The notes under the pieces were generated by a model. That model saw only the letters and a list, made by a program, of their open reading frames with translations. It had not been told where the DNA came from and ran no database searches. A stretch of 64,000 nucleotides of DNA, from positions 13,667 through 77,666 of the forward strand of contig JAPOVC010000017.1 of NCBI GenBank assembly GCA_026708325.1, in the 5' to 3' direction. Below are positions 45,172 through 50,240 of the stretch, in pieces. Numbering within the stretch: the first letter of the stretch is position 1; the number at the start of each line of letters is the position of its first letter. The translations under genes were made by a program, and so were the position numbers. This DNA comes from Anaerolineaceae bacterium. GTDB lineage: Bacteria > Chloroflexota > Anaerolineae > Aggregatilineales > Phototrophicaceae.

Positions 45172-46875
45172 TCAGCCCTTGAGCGGGCCGGTCATCTGCA
45201 CCAGGCGAAAGCCGATGGAGGCGTGGTGGCGCTCCGGCGCCAGGGCATAGCGAAAGTCGATCACCGCCCGCTCGGCCTCGCTGAGAAAGGAACCGCCATG
45301 GATCAGGCGTTTGCTGCCTGACGCGCCCTTCCCGCCGGGTTGCGCGTCGCGGCACCACTCCCAGACGTTGCCGGCCATGTCCTGCGCGCCGCAGGGGCTG
45401 GCCCCCTCGCGATAGCGGCTCACCTGGGTGGTCATGCGAATGAAACTCTCGCGCACGTTGCAGCGCAGCAGGTCAAACTCGTCGCCCCAGGGGAAGCGAC
45501 GCTGGTCATCGCCCCGCGCCGCCCGCATCCACTGCAGACTGGTCGGCAGGGAAACGCCCAGGCCCAGACGGTCGCCCAGCCAGTTGCAGAAGGCCATCGC
45601 CTCATACCAGGTCACCTGCTCGCGCGGGCGCTGCGCGTTGCTGAAGGTGGCGGGACGCGGGCCGGGGTTTTGGACCCGCCAGTCGCCGGCCGCAGGCGGC
45701 CACCAGCGCCCCTTGGCGTAGCCCTGCGGGTCCTGCACAAAAACCGCGAACTGCGCGTTGGTCACCGGATAGCGGCTGATGCGAAAGGCCGCCACCCGGC
45801 GCTGCTGCGGGCCCGACCCACCGTTTTCTCCCGCCGCGCTCCAGTGCAGGTGACCCGCCGTCACCTCACACCATTCCAGCAGGGGCAGGCTGAAGGGCTG
45901 CGTCCGACCACCGCGGACAGGCGCCAGGGCGCGCGCCCCTTCTGTGGCTGCGCCGGGCCTTTCCGATAACACTTCCCCTCCCACACCCTGCAGAAAGAGA
46001 TCGTCGTCGCGCATCGATTCGCCCGCCCCCGACGCCGACAGGGGAACCCCGGCTGCTCGCGTGCCTTCCGCCTGCGGCGGCTCGCCTTCTCCCGGCAAGG
46101 GAAAGGACAGGGCCAGCAGGTCCGGGCCGCAGAGGCTGGCCAAATCTTCCGGGTCGTGACCGGGATACTGCTCGCGGAAGGCCTGAAAGGCCTCGCAACC
46201 CAGGCGACGCGTGCTGTCCAGACCCACCAGAGCAGCGATCTGACGGTATTCGCGCTCGGCCTCGCGCTGCCTGCTGACCCGCTTCAGCCTTGCCTCGGCT
46301 TCGGCCAGGACGGCGTCCAGGTCCACAAAGCGCGAGCTGTGGCCGGCCGCGCGCGCGCGCCGCAGCAGATAGACGGCCTCGTCGAACTGCCCACCCTGCA
46401 TCGCCCGCGTGGCTTCGCGAATGCTCTGCTCCAGGTCCTTGACCGGCGCGTCGACGATGTCAACGCTGCGCGGCCCGTTGGCCGGCGGCTGAACGGCCAC
46501 GTGTTCCGCGGCCTCTATCGAGCGCAGCAGCGAATCCAGCGCATCCTGCTGCAGGCCACGGCTGAAGTCGACGTGGTGAATGTCGCGCAGGGCCTCCGGC
46601 ACCTCCGTCTCAGGGTGAATCAGCAGGGGAAAGACGATGCGGCCCAGGCTGTGGGCCAGGTTGAACTCGCGCAGGCAGGCCGTCGAGCGGACGGACTCCG
46701 GCGACAGCAGCCAGAGAAAGCCCTCGCACCACTCCAGTCGCCGGTAAATTTCGTGCCACCAGTTCGTGCCGGCGAAGAGCCGCTGGTCGTACCAGATGTC
46801 GTGGCCCGTCAGGGCGCGCACGATTTGTACGCAATAGGGCTTGTCCACGCGCGCATAACTGACGAAGAGTTTCAC
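45172..46875 (-). CDS. TIR domain - helical linker - FGE/SUMF1-type (formylglycine-generating-enzyme-like) domain protein
   Basis: GTG start overlaps the upstream stop (GTGA at 46872-46875). N-terminal TIR_2-like KLFVSYARVD...LLSPESVRSTACLREFNLA, with the conserved Glu at residue 70. C-terminal FGE-sulfatase motifs RISRYPVTNAQFAVFV, VTWYEAMAFCNWL, DMAGNVWEWC, IHGGSF and IGFRLV. Confidence 0.85.
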   Translation of the reverse strand: MKLFVSYARVDKPYCVQIVRALTGHDIWYDQRLFAGTNWWHEIYRRLEWCEGFLWLLSPESVRSTACLREFNLAHSLGRIVFPLLIHPETEVPEALRDIHHVDFSRGLQQDALDSLLRSIEAAEHVAVQPPANGPRSVDIVDAPVKDLEQSIREATRAMQGGQFDEAVYLLRRARAAGHSSRFVDLDAVLAEAEARLKRVSRQREAEREYRQIAALVGLDSTRRLGCEAFQAFREQYPGHDPEDLASLCGPDLLALSFPLPGEGEPPQAEGTRAAGVPLSASGAGESMRDDDLFLQGVGGEVLSERPGAATEGARALAPVRGGRTQPFSLPLLEWCEVTAGHLHWSAAGENGGSGPQQRRVAAFRISRYPVTNAQFAVFVQDPQGYAKGRWWPPAAGDWRVQNPGPRPATFSNAQRPREQVTWYEAMAFCNWLGDRLGLGVSLPTSLQWMRAARGDDQRRFPWGDEFDLLRCNVRESFIRMTTQVSRYREGASPCGAQDMAGNVWEWCRDAQPGGKGASGSKRLIHGGSFLSEAERAVIDFRYALAPERHHASIGFRLVQMTGPLKG

Positions 46876-49800: not shown

Positions 49801-50240
49801 AAGCGGTTGGGGCTGCGCCAGTCGCTGAAGTCGAAATACTGCGCCCGCTCCACCTCCATCGGCCACTGCGTCTCATCGATGGGCTCGAGCAGCACCGGCA
49901 CCAGCGGGCAGCCGATGCGGTCCGCGCGCGAGAGTTCGCGCTGGCAGTAACGCGATGCCACGTAGCCGCGGGAGATGACCGGGATGGCGGCGACGGCGCT
50001 GTGCAGGGCATCCTGCAGGACGCTGCGCCAGTCCTCGCCGGGCAGGATGTTGAGGCGGTCCATCCACAGCCGGATGCCGGCGCGGCGCAGGGTCGCCGCC
50101 AGCAGCATCGCAAACTCGCCGTCGTCGCTGCGATAGCTGATGAAAACGTGTCCGCCGCCAGGCCGGTCACGCCTGGGGGGCGCATGGGTCGCCGGATCGC
50201 CTGTCCAGGCGGATGCGGCAGGATGTTGCCGGGGGCTCAT
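46872..50240 (-). CDS. TIR - NACHT/STAND P-loop NTPase - HEAT-repeat protein (1122 aa)
   Basis: TIR-like HVFISYRSDDGEF...VISRGYVASRYCQRELSRA, with the conserved Glu at residue 102. Walker A VLVGEAGSGKTT (49425-49451) and a NACHT-type Walker B ALYLDGLNE. The C-terminal ~450 aa are HEAT/PBS-lyase-type repeats (..D..VR..A..ALG..). Confidence 0.85.
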   Translation of the reverse strand: MSPRQHPAASAWTGDPATHAPPRRDRPGGGHVFISYRSDDGEFAMLLAATLRRAGIRLWMDRLNILPGEDWRSVLQDALHSAVAAIPVISRGYVASRYCQRELSRADRIGCPLVPVLLEPIDETQWPMEVERAQYFDFSDWRSPNRFRHRAEKLVAVLRQHFGERIRYQPDAIDTQLTDLAVDLYTRRGLQEYLEHASPVDRVISQDQVRPEPPGVRAWMEQATCVLIDHEPTLAEGAPLAGRRSRPQTLAQVRERHPRLVLVGEAGSGKTTALHNLVLNDIHHWQLLRSGPLPLLIDLVDWEDPMTVQDLVRAHWDLPGDPLRLLARGEVALYLDGLNEIRGHRHHKIALLRKWLASARAPQQVVITCRAQDYRFDVSLGLPLAQTGPLSAENIRFFVRSWLGPQAAPTMLGGLLGDASADLRPQRLMARNVFLLGALCLLHKSRPGEEAVENRGALLRRATAEMWLRQPDDSLFTSLRLAEVEAGLGALADAMLAGETGVYVSRREALGHVGRRDLLEAALRANFLQQRGERLRFTWQAQMEYFAALTQRDGALWRQVRPPVTGEGGDRQQDSRESMIITAACLSANPEETLLGINRVNPFLALRCIANGIDVPERSVEPIIGNLIRVAHSAQHDARVATASALAEINLELALPVLLAAMREGTPAVRRAAVLALWQLDVPTLPSLQDSLAASGTALTDAARVAIHNLRERGLPTLLMLLMNEDARLRRGACQGLAWLQDVAGVPGLMQLLHDSDDLVCIEASAALGGLGDAVAAPALVAALRHDNWRVRRAAALALATLGDAALASLTPALESDEANVRRLATAALSRMEAPEAEAALRRMRRDADDAVRKTAREALRARGGARPDPSRAPADATGKASPAAAPDTLDALLERLRNSAWGEREEAARSLTAWAQHFRGRRNGHIVARLCEVLREPDWMLRWAAVEALAALGNPAASDSLAPLLQDENQPLRVAVLRALLECGDAGAARHLIPLARDPDPLLREAVAEALGRLVHPAGIRALGALCQDAEALVRLAAVVALGEAGRREGEAYAIAALQDSDAMVRWYAVATLERIGTRRCVPALRALLNEHSHPHWEPRETGELARHVLQQLGAEAGPLP

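Follow-up and report, generated by a model that had tools for sequence, protein, structure and literature searches.

A co-inherited TIR-NACHT-HEAT and TIR-FGE gene pair of Anaerolineae as a candidate split form of single-chain NLR-like receptors

Background

To our knowledge, each bacterial STAND/NLR receptor studied to date is a single polypeptide that recognises phage proteins through variable repeats at its C-terminus. The present analysis concerns a stretch of 64,000 nucleotides from an Anaerolineaceae bacterium (GenBank assembly GCA_026708325.1, contig JAPOVC010000017.1, positions 13,667 to 77,666 of the forward strand), referred to throughout as the window, in which two overlapping genes encode an upstream 1122-aa TIR-NACHT-HEAT protein, here named P1, and a downstream 567-aa protein, P2, combining a TIR domain with a domain similar to formylglycine-generating enzyme (FGE). 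In the pair, sensing and switching appear to be divided between two genes that are inherited together and each encode a TIR; the small partner is strongly conserved and the NLR partner variable. The reading favoured here, to which we give an even chance, is that of an NLR-like TIR module, encoded by two genes and resident in Anaerolineae, that divides the layout of the single-chain TIR-NACHT-FGE receptors; in it P2 would form the core, P1 the switch and TIR assembly the outcome.

The closest described systems are single-chain receptors of the STAND-FGE/CLec type (CLec, C-type lectin), including TIR-NACHT-FGE and EAD8-nSTAND1-FGE proteins. As described (PMC7159879, PMC10907252, PMC13581612), these have the same TIR, NACHT and last-position FGE-like domain as the pair. 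FGS/CLec domains have been described as modules that occupy the last position in conflict-system NTPases (Kaur et al. 2020, PMC7159879) and CLec domains as putative antigen sensors diversified by diversity-generating retroelements (DGRs; Dore et al. 2024, PMC10907252). More recently, FGE/CLec has been presented as one of the sensor types of STANDs associated with defence (Nature 2026, PMC13581612). The FGE domains of the single-chain sensors are 35-41% identical to that of P2. The pair differs from them in carrying the FGE domain on a separate polypeptide, together with a second TIR and a family-specific helical domain, and in having HEAT repeats in P1 at the place where the FGE domain would stand. 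It differs from the DGR-diversified STAND-FGE proteins in that the FGE domain of P2 is conserved and exhibits no DGR diversification.

Like Avs and bNACHT proteins, P1 has three parts, an effector at the N-terminus, a STAND NTPase and helical repeats at the C-terminus, and the predicted fold of its NACHT module resembles animal NLRs. However, no Avs or bNACHT model of PADLOC matches P1 or P2, the C-terminal repeats of P1 are its best-conserved part, the partner gene looks obligate and the pair lies outside defence islands. The paired NLRs and TIR-only partners of plants, such as RRS1/RPS4, offer a further analogy, with two adjacent genes each containing a TIR, one product being sensor-like and the other an NTPase switch; by that analogy, heteromerisation between the TIRs would be required. 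P2, in contrast, is without NB-ARC or NACHT and the two genes overlap within an operon, and the comparison is meant as analogy only and not as common descent. In Thoeris, a TIR sensor (ThsB) acts with an effector (ThsA), and P2 is similar in being a TIR protein whose C-terminal non-TIR domain could sense infection; unlike in Thoeris, no ThsA-type effector (SIR2, SLOG or Macro) is encoded in the pair or its conserved neighbours, and matches to the Thoeris models are marginal. In the MoxR-vWA ternary systems, FGS domains are always C-terminal to other domains and the hosts are multicellular or filamentous, Chloroflexi among them (Kaur et al. 2020, PMC7159879). Membership of the pair in these systems was rejected because no MoxR, vWA or VMAP genes were present in any neighbourhood examined.

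Each component of the pair, as well as the fused TIR-NACHT-FGE architecture, has already been described. The papers searched contained neither a pair split in this way, with a TIR on each protein, nor the family-specific helical domain, nor the wide conservation in Anaerolineae. A first-pass annotation of the window, made from the letters and their translations, had known of no experimental characterisation of such a paired operon, and a literature search likewise found no description of a split TIR-NACHT-HEAT/TIR-FGE pair.

Domain architecture of P1 and P2

The two minus-strand genes and their GTGA overlap were recovered exactly where the first-pass annotation had placed them (Table 1), and its assignment of TIR, NACHT and HEAT domains to P1 was upheld by Pfam. 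TIR_2 (PF13676) was matched at 88.6 bits against a gathering cut-off of 28. The domain aligns to PdTIR, flax L6 and AbTIR in alignments with PDB entries, and Glu102, which had been singled out in the annotated TIR, occupies the catalytic Glu position of L6 and AbTIR. The P-loop GEAGSGKTT and the DGLNE motif are both present as annotated, and P1 is assigned to the NACHT clade of STAND NTPases by profile score, Walker A and Walker B (hhhhDGLxE). HEAT_2 was matched in six stretches (E=1.3e-52). In the AlphaFold2 (AF2) model, the order of parts is TIR, helical linker, nucleotide-binding domain (aa 250-390), helical domain with winged helix, HEAT block 1, disordered linker and HEAT block 2. The helical-repeat region totals approximately 510 aa (aa ~577-864 and 888-1113), somewhat more than the length of about 450 aa given for the HEAT-type repeats in the annotation. 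Foldseek searches with the model yielded NLRP3, NOD2 and NLRC4 at E-values of ~1e-8 to 1e-7, with a target-normalised TM-score of up to 0.54; these matches reach past the nucleotide-binding domain. The alphaRep and PP2A-A solenoids were also matched. As modelled, the fold of P1 holds an NLR-like module, with its nucleotide-binding, helical and winged-helix parts in order.

For P2, TIR_2 was matched at 68.2 bits against the same cut-off, and the TIR and FGE-sulfatase domains named in the first-pass annotation were both found by Pfam. Glu70, annotated as the TIR Glu, aligns with Glu102 of P1 in a profile-profile comparison of the two TIRs (hhalign, probability 97.4%). Sequence searches of the PDB using the P2 TIR alone or the P1 NACHT region returned nothing informative, and profile-profile and fold searches were therefore needed. 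The model of P2 matches TIR-APAZ by Foldseek, and the annotated helical linker corresponds to the helices modelled at aa 148-255.

The FGE domain of P2 was matched to ToxD, EgtB, FGE and TvpA by PDB and Foldseek searches, and also to OvoA by Foldseek. In FGEs, the catalytic Cys pair sits in the segment that follows the GGS motif. The segment RLIHGGSFLSEAERAVIDFRYALAPERHHASIGFRLVQ of P2 is free of Cys and no cysteines occur anywhere after the GGSF motif; P2 is therefore without the catalytic Cys pair of true FGEs. The domain had been annotated as a complete FGE-sulfatase-type domain, which holds for the fold and fails for the catalytic pair. Neither Pfam nor the AF2 model revealed in P2 a DinB-like iron-binding domain as found in EgtB and OvoA, the N-terminus consisting of the TIR and helices, and NCBIfam equivalog scores were 58-71 bits against cut-offs of 360-420 (e.g. 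71 against 420). Judged by its sequence, the domain belongs to none of the known enzyme kinds, whether SUMF1/FGE or the sulfoxide or selenoxide synthases EgtB, OvoA and SenA. The notion that P2 is a genuine metabolic enzyme of the FGE, EgtB or OvoA type with an incidental TIR can draw on the Pfam FGE-sulfatase match (E=4.8e-39) and on the name given by NCBI to its relatives, 'SUMF1/EgtB/PvdO family nonheme iron enzyme'. Set against the missing Cys pair, the missing DinB-like domain, equivalog scores far under their cut-offs and the lack of linked sulfatase or thiol-histidine pathway genes in the neighbourhoods examined, this is exceedingly improbable, and a metabolic role was rejected on the absence of catalytic residues.

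The nearest FGE domains outside the P2 family, at 35-41% identity in a genome contig scan, were in nine of nine examined cases the C-terminal domains of STAND NTPases (NACHT or nSTAND1), with TIR, EAD8 or DUF4062 at the N-terminus. In P2 the FGE domain likewise occupies the last position. Fused TIR-NACHT-FGE proteins exist, and two (P0135 and P0141) were among the homologue matches of P1. The same contig scan, made with an alignment of full-length P2, was dominated by GNVWEWC, a generic motif common to all FGE proteins, and gave TIR-FGE proteins at only four loci (L001, L002, L004 and L006), those of L004 and L006 belonging to a different subfamily without the linker. By these comparisons, the FGE domain of P2 fits the STAND-associated FGS/CLec sensor class. 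The C-terminal FGE region is conserved (~0.63-0.70) and not hypervariable, unlike a DGR-diversified CLec domain, and no DGR template/variable repeat touching positions 45172-50240 was found within the 64-kb window.

Gene linkage and distribution

TIR_2 combined with FGE, as in P2, is found in at least 120 clusters (90% identity) at E<1e-147. A full scan of 1.84 billion representatives using the TIR and linker of P2 yielded 98 matches at E<=1e-30, mostly proteins of ~500 aa matched at aa 1-250. The hosts, where named, are Anaerolineae, Anaerolineaceae, Aggregatilineales and Chloroflexi (Chloroflexota), and product names are generic.

A (TIR-)NACHT-HEAT gene encoding 950-1220 aa lies directly upstream of P2, on the same strand, in all seven of the orthologue neighbourhoods annotated, which range from 90% to ~50% identity. 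The flanks of the pair differ between these neighbourhoods, being MoeA and PhyH, TetR/ABC and an M1 peptidase, UxaC and ABC, ABC genes on both sides, a hypothetical gene and TyrRS, or PMT_2 and an aminotransferase. The same 4-nt overlap of P1 and P2 was found at seven other loci (L081, L083, L090, L126, L127, L146 and L001) and recurs in distant clades. The P2 orthologues all start with M(K/R)LF(V/I)SYARVD, and this shared beginning supports GTG as the start codon of P2. At L084 the TIR is encoded by a separate gene of 222 aa, followed by a NACHT-HEAT gene and then by TIR-FGE. Gene fission here, and fusion in the TIR-NACHT-FGE proteins, connect one set of domains.

To count linkage, metagenomes were scanned with an alignment of the TIR and linker, and loci with at least 1 kb of upstream sequence were examined by tblastn. 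A P1-like gene ended within a few hundred nucleotides of P2 at approximately 26 metagenome loci and was lacking at approximately 15. When the window and the loci found earlier are added, a P1-like gene stands directly upstream on the same strand at about 35 TIR-FGE loci out of about 52, with unrelated flanks, and the co-occurrence that the first-pass annotation had put up for testing is largely borne out. P1 orthologues were recovered by their position beside P2; a word-indexed homologue search with P1 gave few distant relatives owing to the rapid divergence and repetitive nature of the protein.

Neighbour joining on the TIR-linker region of P2, with no bootstrap, groups the loci without P1 together, among them tandem or nearby duplicates of P2 (L002, L105). 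P1 linkage is uniform in the basal clade and also in the large one containing the window. The operon of the basal clade is larger than that of the window, an additional NACHT gene of ~800 aa following P2 (Table 1). At L121, L127 and L143 a small open reading frame (ORF) stands between P2 and this second NACHT gene; in L121 and L127 it is a match to the PADLOC candidate PDC-M14B.

Several variants of the family were also recorded. The clade without adjacent P1 is represented by L002 (9995-12925), L105 (3327-4826 and 6325-7785) and L117 (7947-12878), the last with a run of extra FGE-like ORFs. A close relative of P2 in one Anaerolineae metagenome-assembled genome is annotated as two proteins, a 203-aa TIR (MCE2489576.1) and a 377-aa FGE (MCE2489577.1). 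Giant proteins of 1200-2300 aa (P0148, P0174, P0185, P0203 and others) contain three to seven tandem TIRs related to that of P2.

Relative conservation of the two partners

Across lineages, identity is 49-58% among P2 orthologues and 25-41% among the P1 orthologues beside them. Within P2, conservation is highest in the TIR (0.85), with 0.74 for the helical domain and 0.70 for the FGE domain. All 66 family members, 18 of them without P1, have Glu70. In P1, the C-terminal HEAT block (aa 881-1122) is the best conserved at 0.47-0.61, followed by the TIR at 0.45-0.49 and the NACHT domain at 0.37-0.46; the conservation of HEAT block 2 may come in part from the repeat consensus. Walker A is intact in the P1 of the window and in 21 of 25 full-length orthologues. 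It has been lost in the L087/L113 clade, L088 and L141, where Walker B decays in parallel, and the TIR Glu of P1 has been lost in L087, L113 and L111. Since these lineages keep the pair despite loss of Walker A and B, NTP-driven oligomerisation is not universally required. Going by its motifs, the P1 NTPase is normally functional, and intact in the window, and is dispensable for keeping the pair together; P2 looks like the conserved, catalytic core of the pair.

These patterns run counter to the division of labour proposed in the first-pass annotation. The HEAT array had been cast as the sensor of an invader, yet its C-terminal block is the best-conserved and not the most variable part of P1. 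The NACHT domain had been cast as an obligatory hub, which sits poorly with the loss of Walker motifs in at least three lineages and with one TIR-FGE clade without adjacent P1. P2, regarded as a co-assembling partner or amplifier, proved to be the more conserved partner with a TIR Glu invariant throughout.

Alternatively, P2 may be an autonomous sensor-effector whose FGE domain senses and whose TIR executes, with P1 a dispensable regulator, for example an inhibitor or 'guard' that holds P2 inactive by means of its HEAT block. Consistent with this are the approximately 16 TIR-FGE loci without adjacent P1, some of them duplicated and with the upstream gene, where examined, on the opposite strand; the far greater conservation of P2; and the decay of P1 NTPase and TIR motifs in some lineages, whereas Glu70 of P2 never decays. 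However, P1 linkage characterises both the basal clades of the tree and its large clade, 21 of 25 full-length orthologues and the P1 of the window have an intact Walker A, the P1 TIR Glu is kept in most, and the fused TIR-NACHT-FGE proteins suggest that the NTPase normally activates. Genomes without adjacent P1 may also encode it elsewhere. An autonomous P2 is, on the whole, unlikely but a live alternative.

Genomic context

The window is syntenic with L081 and L083 over more than 10 kb. P1 and P2 are 93% and 91% identical to their counterparts at L081 and 75% and 77% identical to those at L083, and for five housekeeping genes beside them identity is 87-93% to L081 and 73-84% to L083. The flanking genes were annotated as moeA and PhyH, and are a MoeA-PBP fusion gene and a PhyH gene with 92-93% identity to the Pfam-annotated genes at L081. 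The G+C content of the pair, 0.70-0.72, compares with 0.71 for the adjoining moeA and 0.61-0.72 across the window, in keeping with the host-like look noted in the first-pass annotation. Synteny with both loci and the scans of flanking genes agree with the view that this is a resident system and not a recent island.

Comparison of 100 flank ORFs from 17 loci with PADLOC gave only generic ATPase cross-hits and singletons. Flank matches to mad3, mad8 and AriA were rejected as evidence of a defence island; they are not the extra NACHT genes and are most likely ABC-transporter ATPases. P1 and P2 themselves gave PADLOC matches at the level of domains only (Aga_TIR, SAVED_TIR and HEAT-ARM_XIII), and a scan of 2.9 million viral contigs found no relatives. 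The anti-phage role suggested in the first-pass annotation is supported neither by genomic context nor by PADLOC and derives from domain content.

Bacterial TIRs act as signal generators, and weak domain-level matches to ThsB and to the ThcB4 TIR of Thoeris type III would suit a Thoeris-like arrangement, in which one TIR makes a nucleotide second messenger upon a trigger and the other protein responds. However, SLOG, SIR2, Macro, SAVED or other receiver domains were found neither in the two proteins nor in the conserved neighbourhood, the ThsB matches are marginal (E=0.0012 and 0.056) and both proteins have the same kind of TIR. This arrangement is very unlikely, and a signal relay of the Thoeris kind was rejected for want of a receiver domain.

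The same machine may instead be a module that filamentous Anaerolineae inherit vertically and use for signalling or programmed cell death, the FGE domain, itself conserved, sensing a conserved endogenous or environmental ligand such as an envelope component, a glycan or a peptide. In keeping with such a role, the pair at the syntenic loci is 75-93% identical where its housekeeping neighbours are 73-93% identical, its flanks are housekeeping genes that vary by lineage and carry no defence-island signal, and zero relatives occur in the viral contigs; the FGE domain and C-terminal HEAT block are conserved rather than diversifying, and the family is Chloroflexota wherever the source names the organism. 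Against it, all of the domains are typical of conflict systems, the closest FGE relatives are found on STANDs with effector-associated domains, and the invariance of the TIR Glu suggests an enzyme with a destructive or signalling role. Furthermore, P1 diverges fast (25-41% identity), loses motifs and splits, and one TIR-FGE clade exhibits duplications, a turnover that is immune-like. We regard this module as a plausible but rather unlikely alternative. As to the choice between phage defence and resident cell death or signalling, the pattern of inheritance leans towards the latter to a degree unusual among defence genes, whereas the domain repertoire and the rapid divergence of P1 favour the former.

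Proposed mode of action

In the favoured model of a split single-chain receptor, the non-catalytic domain of FGE/C-type-lectin fold in P2 would bind a ligand, and P2 would also contribute a TIR with an intact catalytic Glu. P1 would act as an ATP-driven STAND (NACHT) switch and as a scaffold with a TIR of its own, its C-terminal HEAT block docking P2, probably via the helical domain or the FGE domain of the latter. The conservation of HEAT block 2, taken with that of P2, fits a conserved protein-protein interface. A trigger would be recognised by the FGE domain, and possibly also by the variable HEAT block 1, upon which the NACHT module would exchange nucleotide and oligomerise. The TIRs of both proteins would then gather into an active NAD+-cleaving assembly, and depletion of NAD+ or a nucleotide signal would lead to growth arrest or cell death.

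A number of points weigh against this model. Function is predicted from domains and comparison, and the contact between P1 and P2 is one that we infer. The residue four positions before Glu70 of P2, aromatic elsewhere, is Ala in the clade of the window itself. Walker A and B have gone in at least three lineages that keep the pair, and the existence of a TIR-FGE clade without adjacent P1 means that P2 may act alone. The FGE domain of P2 is conserved and not diversified, with no DGR template repeat at the locus. The syntenic pair evolves at the rate of its housekeeping neighbours, which is atypical for phage-defence genes; the seven annotated neighbourhoods are of housekeeping character with no defence-island signal, and no PADLOC system model matched full-length P1 or P2.

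A bolder proposal, with a limited chance of being correct, is that of a lineage-wide, vertically inherited heteromeric TIR machine in which P2 would be the true sensor-effector of a conserved, possibly self or envelope, ligand and P1 a fast-evolving regulator docking through HEAT block 2. Such a machine would be a bacterial counterpart of the sensor/helper or guard-type paired NLRs, serving programmed death or filament-level signalling and not the restriction of phages in the classical sense.

Should the two TIRs co-assemble, as predicted by the favoured split-receptor model, the pair would provide a simple bacterial model for heteromeric TIR activation and the logic of paired NLRs. It would also offer a tractable route to what FGE/lectin-type sensor domains recognise, no ligand being reported in the papers cited above. 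Its housekeeping-like inheritance in a filamentous phylum bears on resident cell-death or signalling roles of NLR-like systems in multicellular bacteria. The immediate value of the pair is that of a well-delimited family with clear candidate mutants.

Table 1. Coordinates and supporting evidence for the P1-P2 pair and its parts (positions in the window), and for the second NACHT genes of related loci (positions in the respective locus)
Feature	Position	Strand	Details
P1 (TIR-NACHT-HEAT)	46872..50240	-	1122 aa, ATG start; Pfam TIR_2, NACHT, HEAT_2; AF2 model, mean pLDDT (predicted local distance difference test) 78.6
P1 TIR domain, aa 32-145	49806..50147	-	Pfam TIR_2, E=5.7e-25; Glu102 codon 49935-49937
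P1 NACHT nucleotide-binding domain, aa 260-403	49032..49463	-	Pfam NACHT, 35.0 bits against gathering cut-off 26.7
P1 Walker A GEAGSGKTT, aa 264-272	49425-49451	-	Motif columns of orthologue alignment
P1 Walker B LYLDGLNE, aa 333-340	49221-49244	-	Motif columns of orthologue alignment
P1 helical domain and winged-helix-like module, aa 392-549	48594..49067	-	AF2 secondary structure; as in STAND NTPases
P1 HEAT-like solenoid block 1, aa 577-864	47649..48512	-	AF2 model, Pfam HEAT_2/HEAT; more variable block, conservation 0.31-0.53
P1 HEAT block 2, aa 888-1113	46902..47579	-	AF2 model; conservation 0.47-0.61, full occupancy in 24 orthologues
GTGA overlap	46872..46875	-	TGA stop of P1 shares 4 nt with GTG start of P2; read directly in the sequence
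P2 (TIR, helical domain, FGE-like domain)	45172..46875	-	567 aa, GTG start; Pfam; AF2 model, mean pLDDT 69
P2 TIR domain, aa 1-127	46495..46875	-	Pfam TIR_2 at aa 4-116, E=1.2e-18; Glu70 codon 46666-46668
P2 family-specific helical domain, aa 148-255	46111..46434	-	Helices with pLDDT ~85 (AF2); conservation ~0.74; no significant Pfam match
P2 variable disordered Pro/Gly/Ala-rich insert, aa 256-324	45904..46110	-	pLDDT ~30; gapped in most orthologues; conservation 0.06-0.25
P2 FGE-sulfatase-like (C-type-lectin-fold) domain, aa 335-561	45193..45873	-	Pfam at aa 354-559, E=4.8e-39
Weak candidate promoter TTGACC-N17-TATATC	50276..50304	-	36 nt upstream of P1 ATG; by eye, low confidence
Second NACHT gene after P2, L001	12326-14788		Also at L129, L143 and L146
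Second NACHT gene after P2, L121	10145-12520		
Second NACHT gene after P2, L127	10205-12610		

Neighbouring genes and repeat elements

A consensus scan reported no sigma-70 promoter upstream of P1 and flagged instead a hairpin at 50285-50298. The upstream neighbour, at 50402-52342 on the minus strand, is a MoeA molybdopterin molybdenumtransferase fused to PBP_like (PF12727); the fusion is kept at L081 and was called as two genes at L083. Beyond it lie two tandem paralogous genes for luciferase-like monooxygenases (52444-53511 and 53402-54442) with 75-84% DNA identity to each other, a family that also flanks the pair at L081 and L083. L087 is the only examined neighbourhood with mobile-element genes nearby; there, ~3 kb downstream of the pair (14320-21566), lie genes for a phage-type integrase and a serine recombinase, along with a block of small genes that have no annotation.

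Palindromic intergenic elements occur in the window at 29481-29759, 40945-41341, 52343-52572, 54541-54926, 59082-59430 and 61370-61448, none of them within the P1-P2 pair. One kind consists of CCCCTCTCCCT(G/C)AGGGAGAGGGG followed by GGGGTGAGGGC, and another of a GGGAAGGGCTCCCGCG..AGCGGGAA palindrome. They are present in both orientations and resemble repeats of the repetitive extragenic palindromic (REP) or miniature inverted-repeat transposable element (MITE) type. A tandem array with a period of 12 nt and ~18 overlapping copies (26905-27299) lies inside a plus-strand ORF of 485 aa (26482-27939) and implies tetrapeptide repeats. Repeats with a period of 252 nt (84 aa) extend over 32819-36018, across the plus-strand ORFs 32457-33890, 33158-34240 and 34701-36023, and could represent a gene for a repeat-domain protein, possibly with frame changes.

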